A stretch of 64,000 nt of DNA from an uncultured Eubacteriales bacterium (GTDB lineage Bacteria; Bacillota; Clostridia; Oscillospirales; Acutalibacteraceae): contig CAYJFP010000003.1 of the NCBI GenBank assembly GCA_964369415.1, positions 31,782 through 95,781 on the forward strand, written 5' to 3'. The position numbers and the translations under genes were made by a program. Shown piece by piece: positions 349 through 63,135 of this stretch. The notes under the pieces are model-generated. The model was given only the letters and a program-made list of their open reading frames with translations. It was not told the origin of the DNA and searched no databases. The stretch's first letter is position 1. Every line of letters starts with the position of its first letter.

Positions 349-1560
349 TTGTTTAATTTTATTTTTAAGGAAGGTATTGAATTGGAAACAGAAAGAAACG
401 TTATACGCTCTAACAATAAAAATTTAATTGCAAATACAATCAGAAGTATCGGACCTATTACCATAGAAGATTTAGTCTCTTCTTGTAATTTAAGTAGACC
501 TACTGTTGTGGGTATTGTTAAAGAATTAACCGAGAACTGCATCGTCGAAAAAGTGGGATTTGAAAACTCTGTCACAGGTAGAAATCCTGCACTTATTGGT
601 ATATCTTCCAACAAGTATTTTTCTATCGGCATTGACATGGAGTTTCCTAAAATATCTTTTTGCTTCATGAATTTAAAATCTGATGTCATTTTTGCTCCTG
701 CTCCTGTCACTATTCACGATTCTAGTAATCCGAATGAATTCCTGAATAATCTTTGCAATAATATAGTTAATTCTTGCAACCAAAATGCCTTAGATTTGAA
801 GAATTGCATAGGAATAGCTGTAGGAACTTCGGGTGTCATAGATAGTAACAAGGGTATAATTTATTTTGCTGAAAGAGCTGCTAATTTTAACAATATAAAT
901 GTTAAAGAAATAATCAGTTCTAAGCTTAACTTGCCCGTTTATCTTCAAAATGATGTTCACTTACTTTCACTTTTAGAAGTCAATAATAATCCCGAGCTTA
1001 AAAACAGCAATTTTATTTATTTAGCCGTTCGGTCTGGAGTCGGCGCAACCGCATTAGTTAACGGCTCTCCCTATTTAGGTACCAACGGAAATTCTGGCTA
1101 TGTCGGACATATGGTTATTGACATTAACGGTAAAGAGTGCAAGTGCGGAAACAAAGGGTGTTTTGAACTTTTTGTAAGTAAAGAATCTATTGTTGATATG
1201 TACTGTGAAATTCTCAATCTACCTGAACAAATATCAGACTTAGTCACTATAGATAAAATTTTTATTAATGCGCAAAGCGGAGAAGTTCACGCTCAAAAAA
1301 TCATTGATGGTCTAATTAATTATTTAAGCATAGGTATCATAAATATCGTTAATATTTTTGATATATACAATGTAGTTATTGCTGGTTTTCCACATGAAAA
1401 CAACCATGATTTCTATTCTCAACTTAACGATAGAATTAAATCTAAAAGGCATTTTTCAGTGAGTAAAACAATAAATGTTTCTCCAAGTATTTCAGATGTC
1501 AACGACTGTAATATTGGGTGTGCACTATATATTGTCAATGAATTTTTCACTAATATTTAA
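349..1560 (+). CDS. ROK-family transcriptional regulator (NagC/XylR-like)
   Basis: N-terminal wHTH (PITIEDLVSSCNLSRPTVVGIVKEL). ROK sugar-kinase fold with zinc motif GHMVID...CKCGNKGCFE. True start is probably TTG 382, behind AAGGAAGG, because 349 lies only 14 nt after the -10. Confidence 0.85.
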   Translation: MFNFIFKEGIELETERNVIRSNNKNLIANTIRSIGPITIEDLVSSCNLSRPTVVGIVKELTENCIVEKVGFENSVTGRNPALIGISSNKYFSIGIDMEFPKISFCFMNLKSDVIFAPAPVTIHDSSNPNEFLNNLCNNIVNSCNQNALDLKNCIGIAVGTSGVIDSNKGIIYFAERAANFNNINVKEIISSKLNLPVYLQNDVHLLSLLEVNNNPELKNSNFIYLAVRSGVGATALVNGSPYLGTNGNSGYVGHMVIDINGKECKCGNKGCFELFVSKESIVDMYCEILNLPEQISDLVTIDKIFINAQSGEVHAQKIIDGLINYLSIGIINIVNIFDIYNVVIAGFPHENNHDFYSQLNDRIKSKRHFSVSKTINVSPSISDVNDCNIGCALYIVNEFFTNI

Positions 1561-1597: not shown

Positions 1598-2791
1598 TTA
1601 GGCATCGTCTTTTGTAATTTTCATAAGTACGAATTCAAAGTTATACTTTGAGTTATTTGTATTTGCGTAAAAAAGACTTTGAAGGCGCTTAAGCACCATT
1701 CTTCCCACTTCATAATCTTCAATATTAGGAAGCAAAAGAGCAAACTGACTTGGGCTGTATCTTGAAATTGTATCGCCACTTCTTAAATTAATTCTTAAAA
1801 GCTCTCTCAAATTTTTCATAGCAAAATCAAGCTCTAAAGACTCAATATCATCCACATTCATAGATTTAATGCTTACAATTCCTAAAAACATCTGCGTGCC
1901 AAATCTTTTTAAATTTCTCATATAAAGACGGTAAATATCTTTAAAAATCGTATATTCACACACAAATCCGCCCTTATCATCGTCACTTGCTTTAAGGTCT
2001 GTATAAATTTGTTCTATATTCGCCTCTGCTTTTTTCTCACTGTCCATGAGCTGTTTATAGAAATCTAAAATTTCATCTGAAGGCTTAACTCCAAGATGGG
2101 CATAATACAAGTCTGTAATATTCTGATACTGCACAAGAGCTTCTTTATGTTTACCAATTTTTAAAAGAGCCTGCATAAGCTCTATATTTAAAAGAACGTC
2201 AAAGACATCAATCTCAAGTGCAATTTTACAAATTCTTATTACCTCTCCATAGTCCTCTTGTTCGTTCAAAAGTCTTATATACTGATAAACTGTTCTTAGA
2301 TATAAATTATGATAATAATACGACTTAGGCGCTAACCATGAATTAATACTTGAATCAACAAACAAATCATCATTGTACATGAATAAAACTTCATCGAATT
2401 TCTCTTTAGCGTCTCTATTAAGCTCACTGGTGCTTTCAAGATCTTTACAAATGTCGTCAAGTTTGAAAATGTCAATTTCACAATCCAAATTTGGATTCCA
2501 CATGTAAGCGCCACGTTTTGTGACTATAGCGTCTTCAAGTCCGCACTGGCTAAGGTCCTTTCTAAGCCTACTGACAAGAGTCTTCAGTGTATTTTCCAAA
2601 TTCAAACTATCGTCTCCGTCCCAAAGGACTTCTATTATACGACCAACTGAAACTGGACGATTCTTATTTATTATTAAACATTCAAGTAATAAAAGTTTTT
2701 TTGGCGATTGCTTAAATCTTTTTGCTATGTCTTCGCCATTTACAATTATTCTCATTTCGCCTAATGTATATATATTAACCTTGTTTTGCAT
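1598..2791 (-). CDS. SARP-like activator (OmpR/PhoB-type wHTH + BTAD) with C-terminal degenerate GGDEF-like domain
   Basis: wHTH: TLKTLVSRLRKDL...VTKRGAYMW. BTAD-like helical region ending HLGVKPSDEILDFYKQL. C-terminus reads RSGDTISRYSPSQFALLLP where GGDEF domains read RxxD-x5-GGDEF. RBS GAAGGGAAG precedes the ATG. Confidence 0.7.
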   Translation of the reverse strand: MQNKVNIYTLGEMRIIVNGEDIAKRFKQSPKKLLLLECLIINKNRPVSVGRIIEVLWDGDDSLNLENTLKTLVSRLRKDLSQCGLEDAIVTKRGAYMWNPNLDCEIDIFKLDDICKDLESTSELNRDAKEKFDEVLFMYNDDLFVDSSINSWLAPKSYYYHNLYLRTVYQYIRLLNEQEDYGEVIRICKIALEIDVFDVLLNIELMQALLKIGKHKEALVQYQNITDLYYAHLGVKPSDEILDFYKQLMDSEKKAEANIEQIYTDLKASDDDKGGFVCEYTIFKDIYRLYMRNLKRFGTQMFLGIVSIKSMNVDDIESLELDFAMKNLRELLRINLRSGDTISRYSPSQFALLLPNIEDYEVGRMVLKRLQSLFYANTNNSKYNFEFVLMKITKDDA

Positions 2792-2817
2792 TTAAAAAGT
2801 TCTTCCCTTCAAATATA

Positions 2818-3978
2818 TCAAATAAAAGTATTCTCAATTCTAATTAATTTATAGCTGAAATTGTAATTTTTATTAAATTCTTCCTCATAAAAATTACCTT
2901 TAAGTCTTTCCATAACAGTCCTACCAACTTCCTCATCGGCAGCAGATGGTAGTAACGCGGTAAACTGCGTCGCACTGTATCTTGAGATAGTATCTCCTGT
3001 TCTAAGTCTTTGAACCAAGACATCCTGCAATTTTTTCATAATTTCATTCATTCTTTCAGGATCACTATCCTCTTCACATTTCGGTGTAACACTGACAAGA
3101 ACCAAAAACATTGATTGACCCAGTCTTCCTAAGTTTCTCATATGTAAATAGTAAATCTCTTTAAAAAGTGAATATTCGCAAACAAATGCACCATTAATCT
3201 CTTCGTCTAACAATTCTTCATTTATTTTCTCTATAGTAACAGTCTCTCTACTCTTAATAATTTTATTGTAATAGCTTTTCATTTTATCGGTAGAATCGAC
3301 ATTGGCAGAATCTTTTTTAATAACTGTTACATCCACCTTATTCTCACCAAGCTTAATCAAGGCCATTACCATATCCATATTAAAACTCGACTCAGCACTA
3401 TATATATGAAGAACCGCCTCGCACACTCTTAAAACATCTTTATACAAGCCCTCTACTTTTAAGAAATCAACGTATTTTCTCATCAATTTTAAAAATAAAG
3501 TTCTATAGTACTCTCTTTTTTCTTCAACAAAACACGCCGACTCCTCATTGCTTAAGAGTTCACCTTTGTATAATTTCAATATTTTTTCAAATCTACGTTT
3601 AAGGCTATCTGTAAATAAGGTTTCAGTTTCTATCTTCTGTGCAATATCATCAAACTCATCTGTATCTATTGTACATATGTCTCTATTCCACAGATATGCT
3701 CCAGCACGAGTAATTATCGCCAACGGATACCCATTATCATCAAAAATTTTTCTAATTCTGCTAATTCCTGTTTTAATGGCACCTATTCCAAGAATGCTCT
3801 TATTTTCTCCCCATTCCACCTCTGACAATTCAGCAAGTGTAACCGGACCTTTTTTAAGAATTATATATTCTATAATACTCTTTCTCTTAAAAGGTGTCTT
3901 AAACTTAGAAGAAACATCTGCATTCTTTATTTCTATACTAAACTCGCCAAACAAGCATATATCCGCAACTTTACTCAC
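2818..3978 (-). CDS. SARP-like activator (wHTH + BTAD) with C-terminal degenerate GGDEF-like domain; paralogue of 1598-2791
   Basis: Same architecture, alignable over the full length. C-terminus RTGDTISRYSATQFTALLP. GTG start behind GAGGGAG. Only 26 nt separate it from the downstream paralogue, so the two are probably co-transcribed. Confidence 0.7.
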   Translation of the reverse strand: MSKVADICLFGEFSIEIKNADVSSKFKTPFKRKSIIEYIILKKGPVTLAELSEVEWGENKSILGIGAIKTGISRIRKIFDDNGYPLAIITRAGAYLWNRDICTIDTDEFDDIAQKIETETLFTDSLKRRFEKILKLYKGELLSNEESACFVEEKREYYRTLFLKLMRKYVDFLKVEGLYKDVLRVCEAVLHIYSAESSFNMDMVMALIKLGENKVDVTVIKKDSANVDSTDKMKSYYNKIIKSRETVTIEKINEELLDEEINGAFVCEYSLFKEIYYLHMRNLGRLGQSMFLVLVSVTPKCEEDSDPERMNEIMKKLQDVLVQRLRTGDTISRYSATQFTALLPSAADEEVGRTVMERLKGNFYEEEFNKNYNFSYKLIRIENTFI

Positions 3979-4055: not shown

Positions 4056-4084
4056 ATTATACACTATTAAAGTTACATTTGCAA
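4056..4084 (-). promoter_or_regulatory. putative sigma-A promoter of the regulator pair
   Basis: On the minus strand: TTGCAA (4084-4079), 17-nt spacer, TATAAT (4061-4056). Confidence 0.45.
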
Positions 4085-4102
4085 TACATTTAGCATACAT
4101 TT
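4074..4102. repeat. three direct TACATTT heptamers at exact 11-bp phasing (candidate SARP operator)
   Basis: TACATTTgcaa TACATTTagca TACATTT, starting at 4074, 4085 and 4096. They overlap the -35 of the minus-strand promoter. Confidence 0.55.
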
Positions 4103-4149: not shown

Positions 4150-4177
4150 TTGACACTTTAAATCTTTGTGCTATAAT
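4150..4177 (+). promoter_or_regulatory. putative sigma-A promoter (extended -10) of the lipoprotein/pilus-like operon
   Basis: TTGACA (4150-4155), 16-nt spacer ending TGc, TATAAT (4172-4177). Confidence 0.55.
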
Positions 4178-4266: not shown

Positions 4267-5250
4267 TTGGAAATGAAGTTTCGAGCTATAACATGCTTTA
4301 TCATAACTATAGCTTTAATATTTGTACTTATAGGATGCGACAGTGGTCTTACCCCTCCTTTGGGAAGTTCTTCCAGTAATAGTGGTAGTACTACCCCATC
4401 GGGACAGTCCGACCCTAATGCTCCTAAAGGTGATAGAGATCCTGTCGCAGTTGTTTTACCTACAACCGCCGATGGGATAAGTGCATATACTGGCAACGCT
4501 GCCATAATAGATACATCAAACACGGCTAACGGTTATTTTATGGTAAAGTACACTGGAAGCAAGGAAAAAATCAAAATGCAAGTTACCCACAACGGCGGTG
4601 AACCTTATACTTATGACCTCATCCCAGGCGGCGATTATGAAGTCTTTCCACTTGCACCTGGCAACGGCTCTTACACCGTTACTATAAATGAAAACATTGA
4701 GGGCACAAGTTATGCGGTTGTCGATACTCATTCGTTTGAAGTCACTCTTGAAGACGAGTTTCAGCCGTTTTTACACCCTAGTAAATATGTAAATTATACA
4801 GATAGCCCTAACACTGTTGCTTTAAGCGAAGATTTAGCCGACGGAGCTTTTAACGACCTAGATGTGGTCGAATCCGTTTACAATTATGTGACAAACAATG
4901 TTTCATACGACCATGATAGAGCAGCCACCACCACTACGTTTTATATCCCTGATATGGATGTAACTCTTTCGTCAAACGCAGGACTTTGTTTTGATTATGC
5001 CGGCCTTATGACCTCTATGTTAAGGGCACAAAGAATTCCAACACAGCTTGTAATCGGATATGCTGGCGATGTCTATCATGCTTGGATAAGCGTCTATACT
5101 CCTGAAACGGGGTGGGTTAAAGATATTATACAGTTCGACGGTGTTAACTGGGTTAGAATGGACCCTACATTTGCTTCTTCTGCTGGAGACCCAAGCATAG
5201 AACAGTACATCGGAGACGGTAAAAATTATAACGCTATGTTCTTTTACTAA
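4267..5250 (+). CDS. lipoprotein with transglutaminase-like cysteine-protease core
   Basis: Signal peptide plus lipobox VLIGC. S/T/P/G-rich linker. Cys-His-Asp triad context GLCFDYAG...VYHAWISV...WVRMDPT. Start is TTG 4267 or ATG 4273, behind GGGAGG. Confidence 0.8.
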   Translation: MEMKFRAITCFIITIALIFVLIGCDSGLTPPLGSSSSNSGSTTPSGQSDPNAPKGDRDPVAVVLPTTADGISAYTGNAAIIDTSNTANGYFMVKYTGSKEKIKMQVTHNGGEPYTYDLIPGGDYEVFPLAPGNGSYTVTINENIEGTSYAVVDTHSFEVTLEDEFQPFLHPSKYVNYTDSPNTVALSEDLADGAFNDLDVVESVYNYVTNNVSYDHDRAATTTTFYIPDMDVTLSSNAGLCFDYAGLMTSMLRAQRIPTQLVIGYAGDVYHAWISVYTPETGWVKDIIQFDGVNWVRMDPTFASSAGDPSIEQYIGDGKNYNAMFFY

Positions 5251-5266
5251 TTGAGAGGGTGATAAT

Positions 5267-6322
5267 ATGGATAAAAAAGTAAAAAAAGTTAAACAAATTA
5301 GTACACATGACCTTTGCTATCTATTTGAGCAACTGTCTATCTTTTCAAAAAGTGGAATTCCAACTTGGGAAAGTCTTTACATAATAAGTCTTAATGAGAA
5401 AAATTCTGGCAAGACAAATGTATTTTACAGACTTTATGAATTGGTGGCAGACGGAATGTTCTTCTCACTTGCTATGAAGGAGCTGGGCTGCTTCCCATCG
5501 TATGCAGTTAGCATGGTTGAAATGGCAGAGCAAACAGGTAAAACAGAAGATGTATTCATGACACTTCATACTTACTATAGCAACCGTGACATTCTTTCAA
5601 AAAATATTAGGTCAAGCGTTGTTTATCCGCTTTGTATGGCTGGCATGGTATTTGCTGTTGTATTTATTCTGTTAGTTCAGGTTATGCCGGTGTTTGAGCA
5701 GGTTTTTGAAGGCCTTGGCCTTGCTTTAAATCCCGTTTCGGTCGTTCTTTTGGGAATCGGACAAACGCTTAATACCTATGCCGTAGCAATTTTGGCTGTA
5801 GTTGCCGCTATAATCCTATTTTTTGTAGTTCTAAAATTTACAAGCGGTGGAAAAAAACTCTTACTTTCATTTTATGAAAAATTTCCACTTACACGCCGTT
5901 TGTCAGAATCTGAAAATATATCTAAGTTTGCTTTTTCAATGTCATTAATGATAGGAAGCGGACTTGATGCCATAAGTTCATTAGAGTTTGCCTCTATGAT
6001 TACACAGAGCAAATCCCTAAAAAAGAAAATTGCTTTGATTAAAGCCGATATTGAAAGCGGTACCAATCTTTCAGAAGCTATAATTTCAAGAAAAGTATTT
6101 TCTCCATTTTATAATGGTATTGTCATAGGCGGTGTGAGAAGTGGTGCAATAAGCGAGACTCTCATGACAATCGCCGACAGATATTCAAATGATACGCAAA
6201 AGCAAATTCAAAAAATTCTATCTATTATCGAGCCTTTAATGCTCGCCGTTTTATGCCTTACAGTAGGACTTGTAATGCTCTCTGTAATGCTTCCGCTAAC
6301 CGGAATTCTCTCTGGAATGTAA
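5267..6322 (+). CDS. type II secretion / type IV pilus platform protein, GspF/PilC family
   Basis: Two GspF-type repeats. Cytoplasmic helical bundles (FEQLSIFSKSGIP..., MVEMAEQTGK...) alternate with TM segments. RBS GAGAGGGTG. Confidence 0.85.
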   Translation: MDKKVKKVKQISTHDLCYLFEQLSIFSKSGIPTWESLYIISLNEKNSGKTNVFYRLYELVADGMFFSLAMKELGCFPSYAVSMVEMAEQTGKTEDVFMTLHTYYSNRDILSKNIRSSVVYPLCMAGMVFAVVFILLVQVMPVFEQVFEGLGLALNPVSVVLLGIGQTLNTYAVAILAVVAAIILFFVVLKFTSGGKKLLLSFYEKFPLTRRLSESENISKFAFSMSLMIGSGLDAISSLEFASMITQSKSLKKKIALIKADIESGTNLSEAIISRKVFSPFYNGIVIGGVRSGAISETLMTIADRYSNDTQKQIQKILSIIEPLMLAVLCLTVGLVMLSVMLPLTGILSGM

Positions 6323-6334
6323 AGAGGTGGTATT

Positions 6335-6670
6335 TTGAAAAACAGTGCTTTGCTTTTTAGATTAAAAAATTTAATTAAAAGTACGGCCCTTTGGTCTATA
6401 GTTTTATTTGTTTCTGTGCTTTTAATTTTAAGTTTAAGTGTCACAGATGTGTCTTCTACTGTCACAGATGAACAACAAGTTCTAATTGAAGACATAATTA
6501 GAAGAAGTGCCGTTCAGTGTTATGCTATAGAAGGCTCCTACCCTAGCGATCTTCAGTATCTTATAGATAATTATGGACTATATTATAATAAAGAAGATTT
6601 TGCCGTTCACTATAACAATGTCGGTGGTAATTTACTTCCTGAAATCAAGGTGTTTTATTTAAGCGAATAG
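6335..6670 (+). CDS. small N-terminally membrane-anchored protein of the pilus-like operon, function unknown
   Basis: Single N-terminal TM (ALWSIVLFVSVLLILSL) followed by a soluble domain of about 70 aa. TTG start behind AGAGGTGG, 13 nt after the GspF stop. Confidence 0.5.
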   Translation: MKNSALLFRLKNLIKSTALWSIVLFVSVLLILSLSVTDVSSTVTDEQQVLIEDIIRRSAVQCYAIEGSYPSDLQYLIDNYGLYYNKEDFAVHYNNVGGNLLPEIKVFYLSE

Positions 6671-6686
6671 TAAAAGGAGGAGAAGA

Positions 6687-7175
6687 ATGAGGCCAGCTAA
6701 AAAACATTCAGCTGAAATAATTTTTGTCTTAAGTCTGTTTTTAATATATACTTTTTGCGCTCTCCTTCTCTCAGTTATGGGGGCAAATGTATACTCTAAA
6801 AACGTTGATGACTCTGAAAAAAACTATAATATGAGAACTTCTCTTTTATACATAACCGAAAAAGTAAGGCAAAACGAGTCTATCGGAAATATATCTGTGG
6901 GAACAGCTCTTGGAAACGACGCTCTAGTTCTCTCTAGAACTATCGACGAGACCGTTTACAACACTTGGATTTACTTTGAAGATGGAAATCTTTGTGAGGT
7001 TATTGTTCCTTCTAACCTAGAGATAGTTCCAAATATGGGACAAAAAATTATGTCTGTTTCAGCTATGGAATTTGAAATTAACGATAGTCTTCTTTCTGTT
7101 ATAATTACTGATGAAAATCAAAATCAGTTTTCCTCTAATCTTTTCTTAGAATGTGAGGTGGCTGTAAATGACTGA
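6687..7175 (+). CDS. N-terminally anchored protein with TadE/pseudopilin-like N-terminus (recalls DUF4860)
   Basis: N-terminus KKHSAEIIFVLSLFLIY: basic residues, small residue, Glu, then a hydrophobic helix. Strong RBS AAAGGAGGAG. Confidence 0.5.
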   Translation: MRPAKKHSAEIIFVLSLFLIYTFCALLLSVMGANVYSKNVDDSEKNYNMRTSLLYITEKVRQNESIGNISVGTALGNDALVLSRTIDETVYNTWIYFEDGNLCEVIVPSNLEIVPNMGQKIMSVSAMEFEINDSLLSVIITDENQNQFSSNLFLECEVAVND

Positions 7176-7593
7176 AAACAAATCTAAAACCAAATATTTT
7201 TTAATTGAACTTATAGTTAACTGCATGTTTTTTGCAATTTCAGCTGCAATTTGTGCAAATGTTTTTGCCATAGGTCATGTCGAAAGTGAAGCGAGTAGGG
7301 ATTTATCTATCGCTACTGTCGAAACACAAAACATAGCGGAGATTGTAAAATATAGCGGTGGCGACATCACAAAAATTTCTGATTTACTGTCGGCTACTGT
7401 AGATAGTGAAAGTAATCTAAATATTTATTATGACGATAATTTTGTAAGGACTGATTCAAAACAAAATGCCGTATATACTATCTCACTTACATTTACAAAT
7501 GTAGATAATATCTTATATTCTCATATAGAAACAATTAAAGAATCTGAAAGTATCTTCGAGCTTAACTGCTCACTTTATACGCAAAATTTATGA
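7168..7593 (+). CDS. pseudopilin-like protein with degenerate class III signal
   Basis: KSKTKYFLIELIVNCMFFAISAAI resembles K-G|FTLIELIV but has Tyr where the -1 Gly is expected. The 8-nt overlap with the previous gene suggests translational coupling. Confidence 0.5.
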   Translation: MTENKSKTKYFLIELIVNCMFFAISAAICANVFAIGHVESEASRDLSIATVETQNIAEIVKYSGGDITKISDLLSATVDSESNLNIYYDDNFVRTDSKQNAVYTISLTFTNVDNILYSHIETIKESESIFELNCSLYTQNL

Positions 7594-7620
7594 TAAAATC
7601 TTATTTAAGGAGGTGAACAC

Positions 7621-8037
7621 ATGAAAGAAAATCATGCTAAAGCCGTCGTAAGTACTGGTATTGTCTCGCTTGTCACTTTTTTCACTGTTATGCTTCTAGC
7701 TTCGTTTTCCGTTTTGATTTTGATTAGTGCAAGGTCAGATGCAGAACTTTCGGGCAAAGCCGCTGATTCACTTAGTGAATACTATTTAGCAGATAGCAAG
7801 TCTGAAGAAAAGCTCGCTGAGCTTCAAAACCTGTGTTCAAACACCTCTTATGAGGAACTTGAATCTGTCCTTGTCCAAAACGGTTTTAACGTTTACACCC
7901 TTGATGGCTATGACGGATTAATAGTAAATTACGATACTGAAATCAGTGATTTAAAATATTTATCTGCTGAAATTTTTATCCCTGTCGCAGATAAAGATTC
8001 CCCTCAAAAAATAACTTGGAAAATTATTTTAACATAA
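7621..8037 (+). CDS. small N-terminally membrane-anchored protein of the pilus-like operon
   Basis: N-terminal TM (IVSLVTFFTVMLLASFSVLILIS) followed by a soluble domain. RBS AAGGAGGTG. Confidence 0.5.
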   Translation: MKENHAKAVVSTGIVSLVTFFTVMLLASFSVLILISARSDAELSGKAADSLSEYYLADSKSEEKLAELQNLCSNTSYEELESVLVQNGFNVYTLDGYDGLIVNYDTEISDLKYLSAEIFIPVADKDSPQKITWKIILT

Positions 8038-8079
8038 CAATAAAAATACATGCCGACAATCGGCGAAAGGAGCATTTTT

Positions 8080-9162
8080 GTGGAAATTATAGATTTGCTA
8101 AAAGAAATGGTTAATAAACATGCCTCTGACATTTTTATCATTGCGGGTAGACCCCTTAGTTTCAAGTTAAACCAAAGGATAGAAACTCTAAATGATACGG
8201 TGATTTTGCCGGCGGCCGCAGAGGAAATGATTGAAAGTGTGTACACTCTTTCAAAAAGAGACATTAGCCTCGTAAGAGACAAGGGTGATGATGACTTTTC
8301 ATTCGCTATAAAAGGCGTCTCTCGTTTTCGTATAAACACATATAAGCAAAGAGGTTCACTTGCCGCTGTTATTCGTGTTGTACCCTTTTCACTGCCTAAA
8401 CCTGAAGAAATTCATATTCCAACCGATATTTTAGAGCTTGGTAACAAGCAAAGAGGACTTGTGCTTGTAACAGGTTCATCTTGTAGCGGTAAAACCACTA
8501 CTCTTACTTGTATATTGGATGAAATAAATAAGACTAGGCCTGCGCACATCATCACTCTTGAAGACCCTATTGAGCATCTCCATTCTCATAAAACAAGTAT
8601 TATTAGCCAAAGAGAAATCACACTTGATACAGGCGATTATCCCGCCTCTTTAAGAGCAGCACTAAGGCAAAGCCCCGATGTTATCTTAATCGGTGAGCTT
8701 CGTGATCCTACCACGATCAACATTGCGCTTACGGCTTCTGAAACTGGCCACCTCGTGTTTTCTGCTCTTCATACACTCGGTGCAGCAAACTCTATAGATA
8801 GACTTGTCGACAGTTTCCCAGCTAACCAGCAACCACAAATCAGAATGCAACTTTCTATGGTTCTACAAACTGTTGTATGCCAGCAACTTGTTCCGACCGT
8901 CGATGGAAAAGTGCGTCCTGTCTTTGAAATTATGCATTGTAATAACGCTATAAGAACACTGATTCGTGACGGCAGAACTCACCAGATTAACTCTATCATC
9001 CAGTCTTCTTCAGCCGCTGGAATGATTACCATGGATTCTAGTCTTGCAAAACTTTATAAAGAAGGCATGATTACTAGAGATACCGCCTTAACTTACAGCC
9101 TTACTCCTGCTTTTCTTCTTCGCCAAATTGGAGAAGAACCACTTGCAATGGGAATACACTGA
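8080..9162 (+). CDS. pilT: PilT-family secretion ATPase (retraction-type hexameric motor)
   Basis: Walker A GSSCSGKTTTL, Walker B/Asp box ILIGELRD, His box GHLVFSALHT. PilT-specific AIRNLIRE-type motif AIRTLIRDGRTHQI. N-terminal ASDIFIIAG...FRINTYKQ. Start placed at GTG 8080 behind AAAGGAG; the ORF track starts at 8050. Confidence 0.85.
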   Translation: MEIIDLLKEMVNKHASDIFIIAGRPLSFKLNQRIETLNDTVILPAAAEEMIESVYTLSKRDISLVRDKGDDDFSFAIKGVSRFRINTYKQRGSLAAVIRVVPFSLPKPEEIHIPTDILELGNKQRGLVLVTGSSCSGKTTTLTCILDEINKTRPAHIITLEDPIEHLHSHKTSIISQREITLDTGDYPASLRAALRQSPDVILIGELRDPTTINIALTASETGHLVFSALHTLGAANSIDRLVDSFPANQQPQIRMQLSMVLQTVVCQQLVPTVDGKVRPVFEIMHCNNAIRTLIRDGRTHQINSIIQSSSAAGMITMDSSLAKLYKEGMITRDTALTYSLTPAFLLRQIGEEPLAMGIH

Positions 9163-9259: not shown

Positions 9260-10060
9260 TCACTCTGCAAATTCTATATTAATTTCGCCGTTCACTGTAT
9301 TTGCCTCCATGCTTTTTTCCCTATCAGACATATTAATGTCTTCTAAGTTATTAGAGCCATTTACCGTGCTTGAACTTACGTTGTACTCGTTTTTGTCGCC
9401 CAAAATATTTCCGCTTATCTCTCCATTCAGGGTTTCAAAATCCATTTCATCTGAAACTAAATCCTGAATCTCAATTTCTCCATTTACTGTTTTGGCACTT
9501 ACTTCTTTAAGTGAAGAATTTTCCAAAGTAATTTCACCGTTAATATTTTCCAATTTTGTTTTTTCTGAATCAGAATTTTTAATCACAATATCTCCGTTTG
9601 TAACAAAGATTTCAATTTCATCTGAACTCAAATCTGAAACAGTAATGTCACTGTTGACGCTTTCAATGAACAAATCACCTTTATAGTCTTTAGGAAGTAG
9701 CACTTCAACATCTGAACTGCCTAAAGAAATATAAAAAAGTCTCTCAAGCCAGTTATAGTCTTCCACTTTTTCTATAATTAAATCTTGCCCATCTTCAATT
9801 TCGTAGTATTCCTTTTCTCTTTCAGTATAATTAATATATATTTTATCATCATTAGAAACGCCAATCACTATATTTGAACTTATGTCGTCAATCACTATGT
9901 CTTTATTTTCACTCTCAAGCACTATGCTTTTTTCTTCAAACGTACCGCTAGTGTTGAACAAACTCATAAAGTCATAGCCCAAAAACATCATTGCGATATT
10001 ATAAAGTATGATTCCGACACCTATCAAAACTGCGCCTAAAATTATAATTTTATTTTTCAT
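9260..10060 (-). CDS. membrane-anchored beta-repeat protein (DUF4097-like putative adhesin fold)
   Basis: N-terminal TM, then repetitive short beta-strand units (GDIVIKN, GEITLEN, GEIEIQD, GEISGNI, GEINIEF). ATG 10060 behind GAGGGG. Confidence 0.7.
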   Translation of the reverse strand: MKNKIIILGAVLIGVGIILYNIAMMFLGYDFMSLFNTSGTFEEKSIVLESENKDIVIDDISSNIVIGVSNDDKIYINYTEREKEYYEIEDGQDLIIEKVEDYNWLERLFYISLGSSDVEVLLPKDYKGDLFIESVNSDITVSDLSSDEIEIFVTNGDIVIKNSDSEKTKLENINGEITLENSSLKEVSAKTVNGEIEIQDLVSDEMDFETLNGEISGNILGDKNEYNVSSSTVNGSNNLEDINMSDREKSMEANTVNGEINIEFAE

Positions 10061-10061
10061 C

Positions 10062-10658
10062 TTAACCCCTCGCTTTGTCTTTTTTTCTGAAAAAACTTCC
10101 AATCCACTTGAACATTCTCAACATTACTCTAAAAGAGAATTTTGTAAAGGTAATAAGTGGGAAAATGCTGACTAACAAGAGTCCTAAACTGGCGATTCCC
10201 ATTGCCATAAGCGCCAAACCTTGCGGAACTCCTATGTGGAACATATTGAATATTCCTTGTAAAATTCCAGCAAGTCCCGCTGTCGCAAAGACTAATTCCA
10301 CCGAAAATGCCATTAATAACATCGAACCTGCCAAGGCTACAACAGTGATTATCAATGCAAAAATTAAAGACGCTATCGTTAGCCAAAACGGCGAGGCTAA
10401 AATTATGAGAATAATCCATAAGACTTTATTTTTACTGCCCGACACCTTATTTATAACGGGAATGGTAAACTCTCCTTCGATGTCGCTTTCAATAGAGTTT
10501 ATATCCCCCATGTCCGAAACAGCTTCCTCTTCGCTCATGCCCGACTCTATCCTGTCGCTTATGCTCTCCTCGTAAAAGCTGAGTATTCTTTCAACCTCGC
10601 TATATGGCATGTGGCTTAATTTAGTTTTCAATTCTTCCATAAATTCATGTTTATTCAT
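10062..10658 (-). CDS. DUF1700-like membrane protein
   Basis: N-terminus HEFMEELKTKLSHMPYSEVERILSFYEESI followed by a polytopic C-terminus. The start overlaps the PadR stop. Confidence 0.7.
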   Translation of the reverse strand: MNKHEFMEELKTKLSHMPYSEVERILSFYEESISDRIESGMSEEEAVSDMGDINSIESDIEGEFTIPVINKVSGSKNKVLWIILIILASPFWLTIASLIFALIITVVALAGSMLLMAFSVELVFATAGLAGILQGIFNMFHIGVPQGLALMAMGIASLGLLLVSIFPLITFTKFSFRVMLRMFKWIGSFFRKKDKARG

Positions 10659-10986
10659 GAGTATTCCCTCCACTTTTTTCTATATCTTCTGCAATAAATT
10701 CGTAAACTTTCATTACCTCGGCCCAGTCTTCAATAAAATTTTGTGTTTGCTTTATCCCTTTTGAAGTAATTTTATAGTATTTTCTTAGTCTACTGTTGTG
10801 TTCTACCGTGTATACACTTAAAAATTCGCTTGCTTCAAGACGCTTTAAAATCGGATACAAAGTTGATTCTGAAACTTTAATATACTCAGAAATATCCTTT
10901 ATAAGCTGATATCCATAGGAATCACCCCTTGTAAGCAATTTTAAAACACACGCTTCAAGTAGGCCTCTTTTCATTTGGCTGTCCAA
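10651..10986 (-). CDS. PadR-family transcriptional regulator
   Basis: LLEACVLKLL..GDSYGYQLIKDI...STLYPILKRLE...RKYYKITSKG. Confidence 0.9.
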   Translation of the reverse strand: MDSQMKRGLLEACVLKLLTRGDSYGYQLIKDISEYIKVSESTLYPILKRLEASEFLSVYTVEHNSRLRKYYKITSKGIKQTQNFIEDWAEVMKVYEFIAEDIEKSGGNTHE

Positions 10987-11129: not shown

Positions 11130-12143
11130 TTATCTATTTTCTAATATTGTAATCTTCATATCGCCTTTTTTAACCCATCCAATTTTTACTAAAAGGCCAT
11201 TGACTCCCAAACTGATTATCGCTGGAAGTACAAAATGAAGTAATAACACCCATAAAAGAGTTATCACAAAGTCGCCACTCATCGACTCAAATGTGCCAAA
11301 CTGCCCTACAAGTCCACTAGTTCCCATTCCAGAACCAGCCGGTGTGTTTGTCATTTTGAATATCGTGGTGGACAGTGGCCCTAGGACAGCCGCCGCCAAA
11401 GTTGGTGCAATTAATATCACAGGCTTCTTCATAATATTCGAAAACTGTAGCATGGAAGTTCCAAGACCTTGTGAAATAAGTCCACCCCAGCCGTTATCCT
11501 TAAAGCTAATCACAGCAAATCCAATCATCTGCGCACAACATCCGACAGTCGCCGCACCGCCCGCTAATCCACTTAAACCAAGCATTATGCATAGCGCTGC
11601 CGAGCTTATCGGTGCCGTCAAAGCAAGTCCTACAATGACCGCAACAGCAATTCCCATCGGAATCGGACTTAGCTCTGTTGCCATGTTTATTACCGAACCT
11701 AGACTGTTCATCATTGTACTTATCGGTGTACCCATGAACATTGCAGCAGTACATCCGCTTACAATAGTCACAATCGGCGAGAGAACTATATCCACCTTTG
11801 TCTTACCGCTTATCAGTGAACCAATTTCACTTCCGACAACCGCCCCTATAAATGCTCCCACAGGCCCGCCTACTTGATATCCATACGCACCCGTTATAAC
11901 TGATGAAAAAATAACAAGCGGCTTTGCCTTTAATCCATACGATATCGCCGCACCTATTGCACCGCCGACTACAGGCGAAGTCGCACTCGCAACCGAGGCA
12001 AACTCGCCGAGAAATCCCATATAGGGCAATTTACTGATTTGCGACAGGATTAAACCTATTATCAGTGATGAAAAAAGTCCAAGTGCCATTGCGCTCATTG
12101 CATCAATAAAGTAACGCTTCAAAAATTTAACTATTATGCTCAT
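11130..12143 (-). CDS. polytopic membrane protein, PTS EIIC-like permease
   Basis: About 10 Gly/Ala-rich TM helices. Family assignment is from recalled resemblance only. ATG 12143 behind GGGGG. Confidence 0.5.
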   Translation of the reverse strand: MSIIVKFLKRYFIDAMSAMALGLFSSLIIGLILSQISKLPYMGFLGEFASVASATSPVVGGAIGAAISYGLKAKPLVIFSSVITGAYGYQVGGPVGAFIGAVVGSEIGSLISGKTKVDIVLSPIVTIVSGCTAAMFMGTPISTMMNSLGSVINMATELSPIPMGIAVAVIVGLALTAPISSAALCIMLGLSGLAGGAATVGCCAQMIGFAVISFKDNGWGGLISQGLGTSMLQFSNIMKKPVILIAPTLAAAVLGPLSTTIFKMTNTPAGSGMGTSGLVGQFGTFESMSGDFVITLLWVLLLHFVLPAIISLGVNGLLVKIGWVKKGDMKITILENR

Positions 12144-12204
12144 TTTTACCCCCAAAATTATGAAATATCAAAAGCAGATGGATTTTACCACCCGCTTAAA
12201 TTAT

Positions 12205-13092
12205 TTAGCCTTTAAGAATTACCGATTGTTTCGCTGGACTTGACCTTCCTTCTAAATTCGGAAATCTTCTTTCAAGTGCCGCAAAGCCAATTTCAATATC
12301 TTCCTCTGCTTCTAGCTGTGACATTACTCCAACCGTTACCATGTCGCACTCTCTAATTGTGTTGTAGACAAAATTAAGACCGACATAAGGAGTACATCTT
12401 CCCGCCGCAAAAGGCTTGATTGTCATGACAGGTTTTTTTGCATTGTTTATAACTTTTGAAATATACTCAACCTCAACTTGCATCAAAAATCCCATGCAGT
12501 TATAGATTTGAATATAGGTTTCAACATCGTATTCGTTCATATCGGAGTACAAAATCAGTTCAGGCATATGAGCCGAAAGACCTGGTTTCATGCCCGCATC
12601 TCTAATCATTTTGAGATAATCTTCAAGTCTATCGAGCGTCTTTTTATTCTTATTTACAAGCTGCTCTGCACTTGCATGATGAATAAGGCAAAATTCCGCT
12701 CCATTTTTAGCTGACTCTTTAATTTGCAATTCTGCTTCTTTTCTAGCTGTTTCGTTGTCGTCCATGTTAAGTATCGGCGTATCGATAATATGTATCTTCT
12801 TGCCCGACTTTTCTTGTGCGTAATCTACCGCTCTTTTAAGGATAGGATTATCTGCAAAAAGCCCCATCACAGCATCAATACCACTGTTCAAATAGGTTTC
12901 AAACACTGGATAAAATACTTTTTCATCACTAAACTTCTGCTTAATCATCGTATCTGCCGCATTGCTTGTATGGCTATATCCGCAAAACCAGTTTGTTCCT
13001 ATCAGCATCCTCGGAAGTGAAATGCCCGCTACCTCAGTTCTTGGAAATAATTTTTGCTCCATAAATCTCTTGCCTGATATTTTTTCAGGCAA
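12205..13092 (-). CDS. conserved hypothetical cytoplasmic protein
   Basis: Long ORF with coding-like composition, 49 nt upstream of the EIIC-like gene. No motif recognised. Start is uncertain: TTG 13092 or ATG 13062. Confidence 0.5.
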   Translation of the reverse strand: MPEKISGKRFMEQKLFPRTEVAGISLPRMLIGTNWFCGYSHTSNAADTMIKQKFSDEKVFYPVFETYLNSGIDAVMGLFADNPILKRAVDYAQEKSGKKIHIIDTPILNMDDNETARKEAELQIKESAKNGAEFCLIHHASAEQLVNKNKKTLDRLEDYLKMIRDAGMKPGLSAHMPELILYSDMNEYDVETYIQIYNCMGFLMQVEVEYISKVINNAKKPVMTIKPFAAGRCTPYVGLNFVYNTIRECDMVTVGVMSQLEAEEDIEIGFAALERRFPNLEGRSSPAKQSVILKG

Positions 13093-13154
13093 ATACCTAC
13101 CTTTCTAATAAAAAATAAGTTCTATCATAAACACACCTCGGCATGCTTATTCTG

Positions 13155-15318: not shown

Positions 15319-15434
15319 AAAATCACCTGTTTACATTCTTCAAATATTTTACTCCTATATATATTATAACAACAATTACTATTTTTACAATATATTAAAT
15401 CTAAATACACAAAATTTTATTATACGAAAACAAA

Positions 15435-16943
<1,509 letters not shown>

Positions 16944-56895: not shown

Positions 56896-58602
56896 ATGGA
56901 TACCACATTTTATATAATTTCTGCTATGGTGCTTTGTGCACACTCATTTTTAAATTTTTTATTATGTAGCCGTTTAAGTAATGAAATGAGATTTAAGAAA
57001 ATTTCAATTTTATTTGCATGTATTGTTAACGGACTTTTATCTCCGTTTCTTCTAGCCACTCACTTTTCTAATCCTATTTTTTTCTATCTAATTTACTCAA
57101 GTCTTTTAATAATGGAGCTGTTTATTTTATTTAAAGGGCGGCTAACTGCAATAATCGGTATTGCAACGGGTTCACTGCTTCACTTATTTGTTTTAAGGGC
57201 GTTAATATTGGCAATTTTTGCTCTTATGAATAATACATCTATGTATCAAATCTCTATCGATACTGAACTTCTTACACTTATAAACATTTATTCCTTTGCT
57301 GCACAGCTTGTAACCTTAACAATGTTTATAACCTTAATCCCTCTTAAAATTCTTTTAAAAGTCATGTCTAACAAAAGCTTTTATACTGGACTTTTGGCTT
57401 TGGCATGTTTTCTTAATGTGTATTTAGTTTATAATTCTTTTATTTTCTTTGTGGATTATTATTCAGTGAATTTAATTGTACAAGAAATTGTAATTTCCCT
57501 ATTAACATTAAGCTTTTTTTACATCATGATGCTTCTTTTAATCAAAATTTTTAACCTTGATATATATAAAGAAAAAAACAAAGAACTTGAAGGACAAATT
57601 GACAAGGACAAAACTCTTACATCTGTAGTTTTTAATTTTGCTGAAATTATTTTCGAAGGAAACTGCACTAAAGATAAGATAACTAGGCTTTTGATAAATT
57701 CTACCGAAAGGCCTACAAACCATATAAACAGCCTTACTGAACTTCTTAAATCTCAAGTAGAAAACACCGTGCATCCTGATGATAAATACATTATTCTAGG
57801 CATTAACTCTGCTTCTATGATTTCTGATTTTGAAAATGGTAACACCGAGAGTATTTATGAATATCGAGCTAAAAAAATTGTTTCTTCTCCTGAAAATGCT
57901 GGCATTATAGTTAAAGAAGATGGCTTTTTATGGTACAGAATGCGCATAAACTTGAGTAAAAATGCAACTACATCCGACATAATTGCATTGTTTACAGTAG
58001 ATGAAATTGATGATGAGAAACAACTTGAACTTAAACTTAGAGAAAAAGCCGAAAGAGATCCTTTAACAGGCGCTTATAACAAAGAAACTTTTTCTTCAAA
58101 GGTAAACGACCTCTTAAAAGAAGGCATGGATGGCACTTTATATATGTTTGACCTTGATAATTTTAAAGGTATTAACGATAATATGGGGCATTCAGCTGGA
58201 GACGATGTACTTCGTGAAGTTTACGAAAAAGCAAGCTCTATATTTAGATCTCACGATTTAGTCGGCCGTGTTGGCGGAGATGAGTTTGTAGTATTTTTGC
58301 TTGGAAATACTAAAGAATCTTCAATTATCAAAAAAGCTACGCAAATATGTGAATCAATAAATAAGACATATTATGCCCAAAATGGTGTTAATATTGAGAT
58401 TTCAAGCAGTGTTGGAATCAGCGTAGCACCTAAAGATGGCAACGATTTTGAAACTTTGTTTAACGCTGCGGACCTTTCCATGTATCATTCAAAGAACAGC
58501 GGCAAAAACACCTATACAATTTATGATGTTAGCATTTCTTCAGGTTTTAAGCCACAAGAAAAAGAAGACTATATGAGAATTAGAAATCAACAAAATGATT
58601 AA
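56896..58602 (+). CDS. membrane-bound diguanylate cyclase (multi-TM sensor + GGDEF)
   Basis: About 6-7 N-terminal TM helices. DPLTGAYNK, FDLDNFKGINDNMGHSAGD, I-site RSHD, A-site RVGGDEFVVFL. Confidence 0.9.
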   Translation: MDTTFYIISAMVLCAHSFLNFLLCSRLSNEMRFKKISILFACIVNGLLSPFLLATHFSNPIFFYLIYSSLLIMELFILFKGRLTAIIGIATGSLLHLFVLRALILAIFALMNNTSMYQISIDTELLTLINIYSFAAQLVTLTMFITLIPLKILLKVMSNKSFYTGLLALACFLNVYLVYNSFIFFVDYYSVNLIVQEIVISLLTLSFFYIMMLLLIKIFNLDIYKEKNKELEGQIDKDKTLTSVVFNFAEIIFEGNCTKDKITRLLINSTERPTNHINSLTELLKSQVENTVHPDDKYIILGINSASMISDFENGNTESIYEYRAKKIVSSPENAGIIVKEDGFLWYRMRINLSKNATTSDIIALFTVDEIDDEKQLELKLREKAERDPLTGAYNKETFSSKVNDLLKEGMDGTLYMFDLDNFKGINDNMGHSAGDDVLREVYEKASSIFRSHDLVGRVGGDEFVVFLLGNTKESSIIKKATQICESINKTYYAQNGVNIEISSSVGISVAPKDGNDFETLFNAADLSMYHSKNSGKNTYTIYDVSISSGFKPQEKEDYMRIRNQQND

Positions 58603-61670: not shown

Positions 61671-61899
61671 TTTTGCACTCCATTCCCATTATTTTGTTCA
61701 AAATGTAAATTTATTATATCACAAACTACTTTTCAAGTCCAACCTTTATAAAAAATTAACATATAAACTATGCTAATTTTACACTTAGCTATTTACTTTT
61801 CCTATTTTATATTCTATAATTACACGGTGTAACGATTATTCAATTAGGATTTATATTGCTTCACAAGGTGAAGCGTTTTTTGCTGAAAGGAATTTGAAA

Positions 61900-63135
61900 A
61901 TGAGCCATCCAGATAATTTATGTATTGATTTAGATTTTGATGTATTTACTTATGATAAATTTAAATCTGATATAGAGATAAAAAATATTAATAAAATTTG
62001 CATGACAGAAGTTATCAACGCCGACATGATGATAGCTACTTTTGGTGAAGAATTATACGCCAAGAGCTGCAAAGAGGTTTTAAGCGAAGGAAAATCTCAA
62101 ATAAAGGCCCTCGGCCTTGACAAATGCATTATCTACTATATGCATAATTATAAAAATTTTATTGTTGCTGGAACAGAGGAGATTAGCGACGAGGATTTTG
62201 AAAAAATAATGCGAATGTCTTATGAGCAGTACGAGCATTCTACTTCTATGCAAACAGAAATAAGCGGTATTTCAAGATTTGTCCTTGTTTTTGGCAAAGA
62301 AAATATAATAGATAGGGCTAAAAGTGCATTTTATCTTAACAGAAAATCTCAAAACAATTACATAATTGCTTCTAATGAAAAGGCAGTACTTGCCGAAGAA
62401 ACTAACCAAAGTGTAAAAACACTAGAGCTTATTAATTATGCCATAAATAATGATGCTGTTGTTCCATTTTATCAAGGTATTTACAATAACGAATTAAAAA
62501 GAATAGATAGATACGAAGCACTTATTCGCCTTTATGATTCAGAAGGTAAGATTTATTTCCCTGGTTCATTTTTAGATGTAGCTAAAAAATTTAAAATGTA
62601 TAACACACTTAGTAAATGTGTTATAGATAAAGCTTTGAGTGATTTTGAAAATAAATCTTATAGCTTATCTATAAATATTTCTTTATACGATGTTGAAAAT
62701 GCCGATTTTGCCTCTTGGTTTATTGATAGACTAAAAAATTATTCAGACCCCCAAAAAATTATTATAGAATTTGTCGAAACAGAAAATTATAATCATGGAA
62801 AACTCTTATATAATTTTTTAAACACCGTGCGTGATATTGGGTGCAAAATTGCTGTCGATGATTTTGGCGTTGGATTTGCAACTTATACATCAATAATCTC
62901 ACTAAAACCTGATATAATTAAAATAGACGGAAACATCATAAAAGATTTAACTGTAAGTAAAGATTGCCTGACAATACTTGATTCAATTTGCTATATGGCA
63001 AGACTGATTGATTCTAAAGTAGTGGCAGAATTTGTCGAAAATTCAGAAATTCAAGATATACTCATTCATCATAATGTTACATATTCACAAGGGTATTATT
63101 TTTCAAAACCACTTCCCTTAAATGAAATTTCTTAA
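61900..63135 (+). CDS. EAL-domain c-di-GMP phosphodiesterase with an uncharacterised N-terminal domain of about 170 aa
   Basis: YEALIRL, SINISL, EFVETE, AVDDFGVGFA, KIDG, VAEFVEN, QGYYFSKP: all catalytic EAL signatures are present. Confidence 0.88.
   Translation: MSHPDNLCIDLDFDVFTYDKFKSDIEIKNINKICMTEVINADMMIATFGEELYAKSCKEVLSEGKSQIKALGLDKCIIYYMHNYKNFIVAGTEEISDEDFEKIMRMSYEQYEHSTSMQTEISGISRFVLVFGKENIIDRAKSAFYLNRKSQNNYIIASNEKAVLAEETNQSVKTLELINYAINNDAVVPFYQGIYNNELKRIDRYEALIRLYDSEGKIYFPGSFLDVAKKFKMYNTLSKCVIDKALSDFENKSYSLSINISLYDVENADFASWFIDRLKNYSDPQKIIIEFVETENYNHGKLLYNFLNTVRDIGCKIAVDDFGVGFATYTSIISLKPDIIKIDGNIIKDLTVSKDCLTILDSICYMARLIDSKVVAEFVENSEIQDILIHHNVTYSQGYYFSKPLPLNEIS

Follow-up and report, generated by a model that had tools for sequence, protein, structure and literature searches.

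Two adjacent genes in a 64,000-nt stretch of DNA from an uncultured Eubacteriales bacterium (assembly GCA_964369415.1, contig CAYJFP010000003.1; the whole stretch is referred to below as the window), here designated winA and winB, encode regulators in which the winged helix and BTAD domain of a Streptomyces antibiotic regulatory protein (SARP) are followed by a shortened GGDEF-fold domain with a dead active site (A-site) and a conserved inhibitory site (I-site). We regard it as probable that WinA and WinB are SARP-type activators gated by cyclic di-GMP (c-di-GMP), the degenerate GGDEF domain having kept only its I-site pocket as the input; c-di-GMP binding is what we infer here from sequence. 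The features on which this reading is built are collected in Table 1.

Domain Architecture of WinA and WinB

An earlier note on this DNA, made from the sequence alone, had described tandem SARP-type regulators fused to a GGDEF domain with a dead A-site and an intact I-site. Both open reading frames (ORFs) and the 26-nt gap between them lie exactly where it had placed them, and all of the peptides it quoted were found in the translations, namely TLVSRLRKDL...TKRGAYMW, GISRIRKIF...TRAGAYLW, RSGDTISRYSPSQFALLLP and RTGDTISRYSATQFTALLP. A GAGGGAG ribosome-binding site stands ahead of the GTG start of winB, a ribosome-binding site also precedes winA, and the two products are 34% identical. Conservation was scored separately in 121 close homologues, in 94 copies taken from the genomes representing 79 species, and in 148 representatives at 50% clustering, the last with a median identity to WinA of only 30%.

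The proposed order of winged helix and then BTAD is borne out both by sequence and by fold. WinA matches the Pfam families Trans_reg_C with 45 bits (cut-off 26.2) and BTAD with 34.1 bits (cut-off 22.1). For WinB, BTAD reached 19.3 bits, just under the cut-off, and Trans_reg_C was not detected by Pfam; the protein aligns with the family over its full length, retains R74, R76, and Y95, and like WinA is matched by the NCBIfam model of the AfsR N-terminus (30 bits for WinB). The full-length AlphaFold2 model of WinA has a predicted local distance difference test score (pLDDT) of 89.5, and in Foldseek searches its residues 1-260 retrieved AfsR (8k60, 8hvr) and EmbR (2ff4) with E 3e-11 and a template modeling (TM) score of 0.71. 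Both R75 and R77 of the WinA recognition helix are conserved in 99% of the 148 representatives. Residues 251-270, which link this module to the C-terminal domain, have low pLDDT.

The last ~130 residues, assigned to GGDEF in the earlier note, do adopt that fold, and no other fold emerged. A profile built from 30 family C-termini (A2) was searched with HMMER against all PDB sequences; 35 of its 37 matches were GGDEF domains, the best being Leptospira DgcR (6zxm, E 8e-9), where LRkgDtisRyspsqy stands opposite FRKSDIISRFGGEEF and, over a longer stretch, LRkgDtisRyspsqyalllP stands opposite FRKSDIISRFGGEEFVILFP. The AlphaFold2 model of the WinA C-terminal domain (pLDDT 90.8) likewise gave GGDEF domains for 50 of its top 50 Foldseek matches, with query-normalized TM scores of 0.53-0.75. 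Other palm-fold families, class III nucleotidyl cyclases and PucR GGDEF_2, were rejected, with no Pfam match at E≤10 and none among the Foldseek top 50. The fold is a reduced one, running b0-a0-b1-one helix-b2-b3-a3-b4, after which the protein stops: the alpha1/P-loop segment and everything beyond beta4 are absent, and because the domain ends after beta4 its phosphate-binding C-terminal part is gone. This truncation is a point that the earlier note did not contain.

The element that is most specific to the family lies at the start of this domain, where G-A-F-V-C-E-Y-x-I-F-K-D-I-Y (WinA residues 274-287, window 1931-1972) spans b0 and a0; its C278 is nearly invariant (98-100%) and its F283 is conserved at 98%. 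The motif superficially resembles the DxDxFKxIND of active cyclases, but lies one structural element earlier, and it could serve as an interface, a redox site or a second ligand site. A register that sets FVCEYxIFKDIY on PleD LLIDIDFFKKIN (the beta1/alpha1, DxDxFKxIN segment) was produced by a forced global hhalign alignment with a probability of 7%; it was rejected because the HMMER alignments to three diguanylate cyclases (DGCs) and the AlphaFold2 model place beta1 at residues 301-310 and make residues 280-297 helix a0.

Loss of the Active Site and Conservation of the I-Site

The catalytic motif is destroyed, as had been claimed, and this holds for the family as a whole: GG[DE]EF is absent from all relatives (0 of 121, 0 of 94, and 0 of 148), and the consensus at its position is S-x-[ST]-Q-[YF], represented by SPSQF in WinA and SATQF in WinB. 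In WinA, S and K occupy the positions of the beta1 DxD motif, and residues for binding guanine and phosphate have been lost as well. With the A-site motif, the beta1 aspartates and these contacts gone, the C-terminal domains of WinA and WinB are not cyclases.

Despite the dead active site, the RxxD motif of the I-site is nearly invariant. It stands exactly five residues ahead of SPSQF and SATQF in the two paralogues, the spacing given in the earlier note, and R337 and D340 are conserved in 100% of the 121 close homologues, 100% of the 94 species copies and 99% of the 148 representatives. An hhalign comparison with the PleD GGDEF domain pairs R337 with R359, D340 with D362, R344 with R366, SPSQF with GGEEF, and R369 with R390; at eight anchor points the numbering of the PleD sequence used here fits that in the literature. 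R369 is conserved at 99% (121), 100% (94), and 98% (148), and R296, which in the A2 profile alignments matches the Arg that ends helix a0 in DgcR, 3ign and TM1788, at 100% of the 94 species-locus copies and 97% of the 148 representatives. Across the full protein, conservation of at least 95% in the 148 representatives is confined to 11 positions: R75 and R77 of the recognition helix; Y96, D107, and Y139 of the SARP core; C278 and F283 of b0/a0; and R296, R337, D340, and R369. WinB retains all 11, including all four Arg/Asp residues of I-site type. A peculiarity of this subfamily is that the motif is almost always RxGD, with Gly preceding the Asp.

The four Arg/Asp residues correspond, in the case of R296 probably, to a site of known structure: the allosteric site of GGDEF enzymes consists of R359, D362, and R390 of one domain together with R313 of its neighbor, and a c-di-GMP dimer cross-links the two domains (PMC7288161). 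RxxD occurs in only 44-57% of GGDEF domains (PMC3974145) and is thus dispensable for the fold, so its near-invariance beside a dead active site points to selection for ligand binding. Of the outcomes by which the earlier note would have been refuted, neither a non-GGDEF fold nor a lack of RxxD conservation among relatives was observed.

The same residues bear upon two other readings of the domain. In the first, the degenerate GGDEF domain is a ligand-independent scaffold for oligomerization, with its Arg and Asp residues engaged in salt bridges within the domain or with BTAD, and the SARPs are constitutive or controlled in some other way. That the most family-specific invariant motif is b0/a0 rather than the I-site would suit this reading, suggesting an interface unrelated to c-di-GMP, as would the lack of neighborhood enrichment of DGC and phosphodiesterase genes (see below); moreover, any dimerizing tail would be useful because SARPs need two protomers on direct repeats. 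Yet RxxD, dispensable for the fold, is conserved here at 99-100%, the other pocket-defining residues are co-conserved at 97-100%, and similarly degenerate GGDEF domains with RxxD (PelD, BcsE, and PopA) are ligand receptors. We consider this reading unlikely, although it is the strongest of the alternatives. In the second, the ligand of the pocket is another guanine nucleotide and not c-di-GMP, for example pGpG, 3'3'-cGAMP, GTP or (p)ppGpp. Degenerate GGDEF domains can gain other activities, as shown by the YybT GGDEF ATPase (PMC7288161), PleD structures with (p)ppGpp exist (9g85/9g86), and the RxGD peculiarity of the subfamily might reflect such a change; but the GTP substrate site is destroyed and the phosphate-binding C-terminal part absent, conservation falls on exactly the residues with which the guanine bases of the c-di-GMP dimer are read, and RxGD is also the motif of BcsE, a c-di-GMP binder. 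We give this possibility a very low probability.

Candidate Operators and Predicted Target Genes

In classical SARP boxes, heptamers recur every 11 bp and the proximal repeat lies about 8 bp from the -10 element. The region upstream of winB contains a triple repeat of this kind, for which the chance expectation is 0.02; TGTAACT, the reading of its last heptamer, is separated by 9 nt from a TATAAT, and the proximal repeat overlaps the -35 element of the predicted winB-winA promoter. The corresponding two-heptamer pattern was not significant within the window alone (1 match vs. 0.97 expected) and was set aside there. Across divergent intergenic regions of the related loci, TGTAA-N6-TGTAA occurred 22 times at a spacing of 11, compared with about 5 times each at spacings of 8, 9, 10, and 12. 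The composite pattern [TGTAAC-N5-TGTAAC]-N8-10-TATAAT was found 13 times in 1.55 Mb, against 1-4 times in locally shuffled controls, with the tight consensus TGTAACC-N4-TGTAACC-N9-(TG)TATAAT. Twelve of these 13 matches lie just upstream either of a regulator gene (the window and loci L006, L010, and L045) or of a gene whose product has a signal peptide and is secreted (L018, L019, L022, L031, L047, L008, L011, and L082); in L082 a sortase gene follows.

On this sequence evidence, the phased direct repeats that take the place of the -35 element form a candidate operator with the geometry of classical SARP activation, as at the promoters served by ActII-ORF4, DnrI and AfsR. Such repeats support the label of activator and predict positive autoregulation together with control of surface proteins, and the family probably switches surface proteins on. 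In a separate clade (L018, L019, L022, and L031) a gene transcribed divergently from the regulator encodes a secreted protein of about 2,000 residues that is rich in Thr and Ala. These proteins, and that of L047, carry a C-terminal membrane anchor and no Pfam domain was found in them; their genes have the TGTAACC double-box promoter and are flanked by two of the SARP-type paralogues with a degenerate GGDEF domain.

Cyclic di-GMP Turnover Genes and Proposed Mechanism

The window also encodes a DGC and an EAL-domain protein, both of which had been called active and both of which have intact motifs, so that the host, by these motifs, would be able to make and degrade c-di-GMP. A search of the window for c-di-GMP riboswitches or other Rfam RNAs found none. 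Among the related loci, a DGC gene directly follows the pilus-like cluster described below in L005 and L043, and DGC or EAL genes are nearby in L015, L019, L021, L025, L031, L041, and L068. These neighbors, and the natural tendency of GGDEF domains to form homodimers, could indicate that a partner GGDEF or EAL enzyme docks on the degenerate domain, control being exerted locally through contact with a specific cyclase and not through the free nucleotide pool, an arrangement that could coexist with ligand binding. We assign it a low probability: most loci are without an adjacent DGC, the active-site half of the domain, which forms the dimer, is the degenerate part, and conservation is concentrated in the I-site. 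Separately, L019 carries a compact putative c-di-GMP signaling cassette about 3.4 kb from the regulator (12708-16821, minus strand), consisting of two tandem GGDEF cyclase genes followed by genes for a ComFB-domain protein and a MinD/ParA/BcsQ-like ATPase.

For c-di-GMP-gated activation, the mechanism that we propose would begin with a rise in c-di-GMP, made by enzymes such as the DGC of the window and removed by its EAL protein. An intercalated c-di-GMP dimer would bind R337, D340, and R369 of one protomer and be capped by R296 of a second, as in the product inhibition of PleD and WspR. This cross-link would assemble two (or three) protomers, either as homo-oligomers or as WinA/WinB hetero-oligomers, through the flexible linker of residues 251-270. 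The winged helices could then occupy the TGTAAC(C) repeats, which lie in 11-bp phase where a -35 element would be, and recruit RNA polymerase, at the regulators' own promoter as positive autoregulation and, in relatives, at the promoters of large secreted or sortase-linked surface proteins.

Several findings weigh against this reading. As single sequences, WinA and WinB score 19.2 and 16.3 bits for GGDEF, both under the Pfam threshold of 23.8, and a precomputed PF00990 match is present in about 10 of 120 homologues; the homology becomes significant once the family profile replaces single Pfam scoring. The domain is, moreover, truncated. The equivalence of R296 to PleD R313 is probable and comes from residue count, and Arg residues of the R390 and R313 types are fairly common in GGDEF domains, so that part of their conservation could be inherited or structural. 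DGC, EAL or HD-GYP genes lie within 10 kb of the regulator in 9 of the 79 loci, with no clear enrichment over chance, and for this reason the turnover-gene neighborhood was not used as support. Lastly, neither the window nor L006 has the double repeat box at its pilus-operon promoter, and loci in which regulator and cluster are co-directional have single ATGTAAC elements (15 forward vs. 1 reverse, 35 times background) that lie at or downstream of the apparent -10 element, where their position is ambiguous.

A double box at the pilus-operon promoter was accordingly rejected. A perfect sigma-A promoter without a box, taken with the position of the ATGTAAC elements, leaves activation of the pilus genes unsupported and repression, or simple co-inheritance with the regulators, possible. 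The promoter itself, with all 12 sigma-A positions matched, is unusual for an operon beside dedicated activators and suggests constitutive or repressed expression. The description of WinA and WinB as activators in the earlier note therefore stands in part, agreeing with SARP-type promoters upstream of the regulators and of surface-protein genes and finding no counterpart at the pilus-like operon.

Distribution of the Family and Its Genomic Neighborhood

An exhaustive search returned 1,614 representatives at E≤1e-30 (50% identity clusters), so that the family comprises at least 1,600 clusters; the best 150 of the 1,614 are nearly all full-length at about 400 residues, with five shorter fragments. 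A word-indexed search gave 498 matches, and 304 matching stretches were found in 185,579 species-representative genomes. Every locus examined belongs to Clostridia (Oscillospiraceae, Christensenellaceae, Eubacteriales, and Anaerofustis), isolates with a member include Anaerovorax odorimutans, Hominibacterium faecale, and Zhenpiania hominis, and the Christensenella member occurs on hundreds of metagenome contigs. This is a large and unstudied family of gut and digester Clostridia, at present annotated merely as 'SARP/BTAD/winged-helix regulator'. Several contigs of metagenome-assembled genomes titled 'uncultured Bacteroides sp.' (among L017-L032 and L047) carry the same Clostridia-type locus with 50-55% identity to the window protein, and their taxonomic labels look doubtful.

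Most genomes have one regulator copy. Two copies were found in 13 of the 79 species loci, all of them among the 26 closest relatives (L006-L031), and in 9 of those 13 (L006-L012, L014, and L024) they are in tandem, a restricted duplication that the earlier note had not reported. Within the tandem loci (L006-L014) the proximal copies are 30-39% identical to WinB and the distal copies 57-67% identical to WinA; the fast evolution of the proximal copy possibly reflects a heteromeric partnership or subfunctionalization.

The pilus-like operon beside which the regulators had been said to lie divergently is real, with T2SSF, DUF4860, and a PilT-family ATPase. Of the 79 species loci, 59 have the same cluster next to the regulator; in 24 of these it is divergent, in 34 the regulator is the last gene, a few bases past the ATPase gene, and in one the cluster lies downstream. 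Three further loci are truncated by the contig end and hold partial clusters. Gene order within the cluster is fixed across many Clostridia (the window and L005-L084). One of its small membrane proteins, p141, has a pilin-like YFLIELIV N-terminus, its only ATPase is the one of the PilT/PilU family, and neither a prepilin peptidase nor a PilB-type extension ATPase was found within the cluster. A literature search for DUF4860 found no relevant paper. The cluster may represent an unrecognized machine for secretion or of a pilus-like kind, with a possible link to the giant secreted proteins whose genes are close by, and regulator and cluster, co-inherited and often co-transcribed, together most likely form a c-di-GMP-controlled surface or adhesion module.

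The Christensenella locus (L001/L039) differs in its surroundings. The pilus-like cluster is absent from it, a small 137-aa ORF follows the regulator, a Cupin-HD-GYP gene comes next (12017-12970, plus strand, HDIGK...GSGYP), and the regulator lies near a MucBP/Flg_new adhesin of 1,467-1,969 residues. In the window, genes for a PadR-family regulator, a HAAS-domain protein and a DUF4097 'toastrack' protein (9260-10986, minus strand) make up a module of three genes immediately past the pilus-like operon. On the other side, a ROK-family gene with an N-terminal HTH-like region (349-1560, plus strand) is convergent with winA and 38 nt from its end; it is probably unrelated to the regulators because a ROK homologue was found in only one related locus (L065).

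TABLE 1. Location of the features discussed in the text. Positions are those of the window unless a locus is named.
Feature	Position	Strand	Description or basis
winA, SARP-type regulator with degenerate GGDEF domain	1598..2791	-	397 aa, ATG start; promoter-distal conserved paralogue; ORF call
winB, SARP-type regulator with degenerate GGDEF domain	2818..3978	-	386 aa, GTG start; promoter-proximal fast-evolving paralogue; ORF call
winA OmpR/PhoB-type winged helix, aa 27-94	2510..2713	-	Pfam PF00486 (Trans_reg_C); recognition helix SRLRK
winA BTAD helical domain, aa 126-247	2051..2416	-	Pfam PF03704; AfsR alignment; Foldseek to 8k60/8hvr/2ff4
winA truncated degenerate GGDEF-fold domain, aa 275-392	1616..1969	-	Profile vs. 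PDB; AlphaFold2; Foldseek
winA RSGD, I-site RxxD (R337, D340)	1772..1783	-	Aligns to PleD R359/D362
winA SPSQF at GG(D/E)EF position, dead A-site	1742..1756	-	Alignments; PleD hhalign
winA R369, PleD R390 equivalent, third primary I-site residue	1685..1687	-	KRLQ opposite ERIR (hhalign)
winA R296, C-terminal end of helix a0, candidate secondary I-site	1904..1906	-	Alignment of a0 Arg
winB RTGD	2992-3003	-	
winB SATQF	2962-2976	-	
winB R285	3124-3126	-	
winB R358	2905-2907	-	
Candidate SARP box, winB-winA promoter	4074..4102	-	Three exact AAATGTA heptamers, 11-bp phase; core TGTA[TA]..
Predicted winB-winA promoter	4056..4084	-	TTGCAA (4084-4079), 17 nt, TATAAT (4061-4056); consensus scan
Predicted pilus-like operon promoter	4150..4177	+	TTGACA-16-TGcTATAAT; 12/12 sigma-A matches, extended -10
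Divergent pilus-like operon	4267..9162	+	T2SSF, DUF4860, PilT-family ATPase
Transglutaminase-like lipoprotein	4267-5250	+	
PilC/GspF-like protein	5267-6322	+	
Four small membrane proteins	6335-6670; 6687-7175 (DUF4860); 7168-7593; 7621-8037	+	
PilT/PilU-family ATPase	8050-9162	+	TIGR01420, 391 bits
Membrane diguanylate cyclase	56896..58602	+	GGDEF 121 bits; intact GGDEF, RSHD I-site, DxD/FKxIND motifs
EAL-domain protein	61894..63135	+	172 bits; EAL, DDFG, KID, QGY motifs
Genes for secreted proteins of about 2,000 aa	L018 3263-9346; L019 1367-7318; L022 3387-9344; L031 1427-7387; L047 past locus end		

Comparison with Known Systems

To our knowledge, little has been learned about the c-di-GMP effectors of Firmicutes, and the route by which c-di-GMP is known to control pili and adhesins in Clostridia is that of riboswitches. 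It is slightly less than an even bet, in our estimation, that the present family is the first class of c-di-GMP transcription factors to read the ligand through a GGDEF I-site and also the first c-di-GMP-binding transcription factor family of Clostridia, in which a c-di-GMP dimer bridges R337, D340, and R369 to R296 of the next protomer, loads the SARP on 11-bp-phased TGTAACC repeats and switches on giant adhesins together with a co-inherited, uncharacterized transglutaminase-PilC-DUF4860-PilT machine whose sole motor is a PilT-type ATPase. The family is widespread in gut Christensenellaceae, Oscillospiraceae, and Anaerovoracaceae and includes abundant human-gut lineages. If binding proves true, it would represent a new combination of sensor and output, in which a transcription factor has taken over the allosteric product-inhibition site of an enzyme as its ligand switch, and would bring with it a ready-made operator (the TGTAACC repeats), a predicted regulon of giant surface proteins and a handle on a widely conserved, uncharacterized pilus-like cluster.

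The earlier note knew of no characterized fusion of this kind, and literature searches found no paper on a SARP/BTAD-GGDEF fusion. A review published in 2025 on c-di-GMP effectors lists no transcription factor with a GGDEF I-site as its sensor; the factors it names bind through REC, AAA+, cNMP-like, GyrI-like, PilZ or bespoke motifs, and none is from Clostridia (PMC12564702). The logic expected here is that of c-di-GMP transcription factors such as BldD, which is dimerized by a c-di-GMP oligomer (PMC4151990; table in PMC12564702), in that the ligand would alter oligomerization or DNA binding to control surface structures.

The sensor half of WinA and WinB resembles PopA of Caulobacter, PelD of Pseudomonas and of Gram-positive bacteria, and BcsE of E. 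coli in having a dead A-site, RxxD five residues upstream of it and a downstream Arg. As in PelD and BcsE, which bind c-di-GMP at RxxD (R415TGD in BcsE) after loss of the alpha1/P-loop part (PMC7439463), this part has been lost, and the RxGD motif is shared with BcsE. None of PopA, PelD and BcsE has a DNA-binding domain, and they serve proteolysis or polysaccharide secretion as adaptors or activators, whereas here the degenerate GGDEF domain is the C-terminal input of a SARP, is truncated after beta4 and would bind the ligand by analogy.

The output half shares its winged helix and BTAD domain with AfsR (8hvr, 8k60), EmbR (2fez, 2ff4), ActII-ORF4 and DnrI, and in sequence its candidate operators resemble theirs: direct repeats in 11-bp phase stand in for the -35 element, about 9 bp separating the proximal repeat from the -10 element. 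Classical SARPs occur in Actinobacteria and act on antibiotic clusters; here the hosts are Clostridia, and surface proteins and a pilus-like cluster are the predicted targets. The C-terminal extension is a degenerate GGDEF domain, where small SARPs have none, AfsR has NB-ARC/TPR and EmbR has FHA. Another SARP-family regulator outside Actinobacteria and linked to pilus functions is GSU1771 of Geobacter sulfurreducens, which affects pilA, exopolysaccharide and biofilm, binds the promoter of pulF (GspF-like) and alters the expression of DGC genes (PMC10599522). Unlike the present family, GSU1771 has an N-terminal receiver domain (phosphorylation), lacks a GGDEF-like domain and is largely a repressor.

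The proposed assembly step copies a known structural mechanism, because the same four residue positions are involved as in the product inhibition of PleD, WspR and DgcR, with RxxD and the R390 equivalent on one domain and the probable R313 equivalent on the other. In those enzymes cross-linking stops catalysis, whereas in WinA and WinB, which have no catalysis to inhibit, it would assemble a DNA-binding oligomer. The system would place a known sensor principle on a new output, in a phylum with few such effectors; its candidate operator is defined, a regulon can be predicted from it, and several hosts are in culture.

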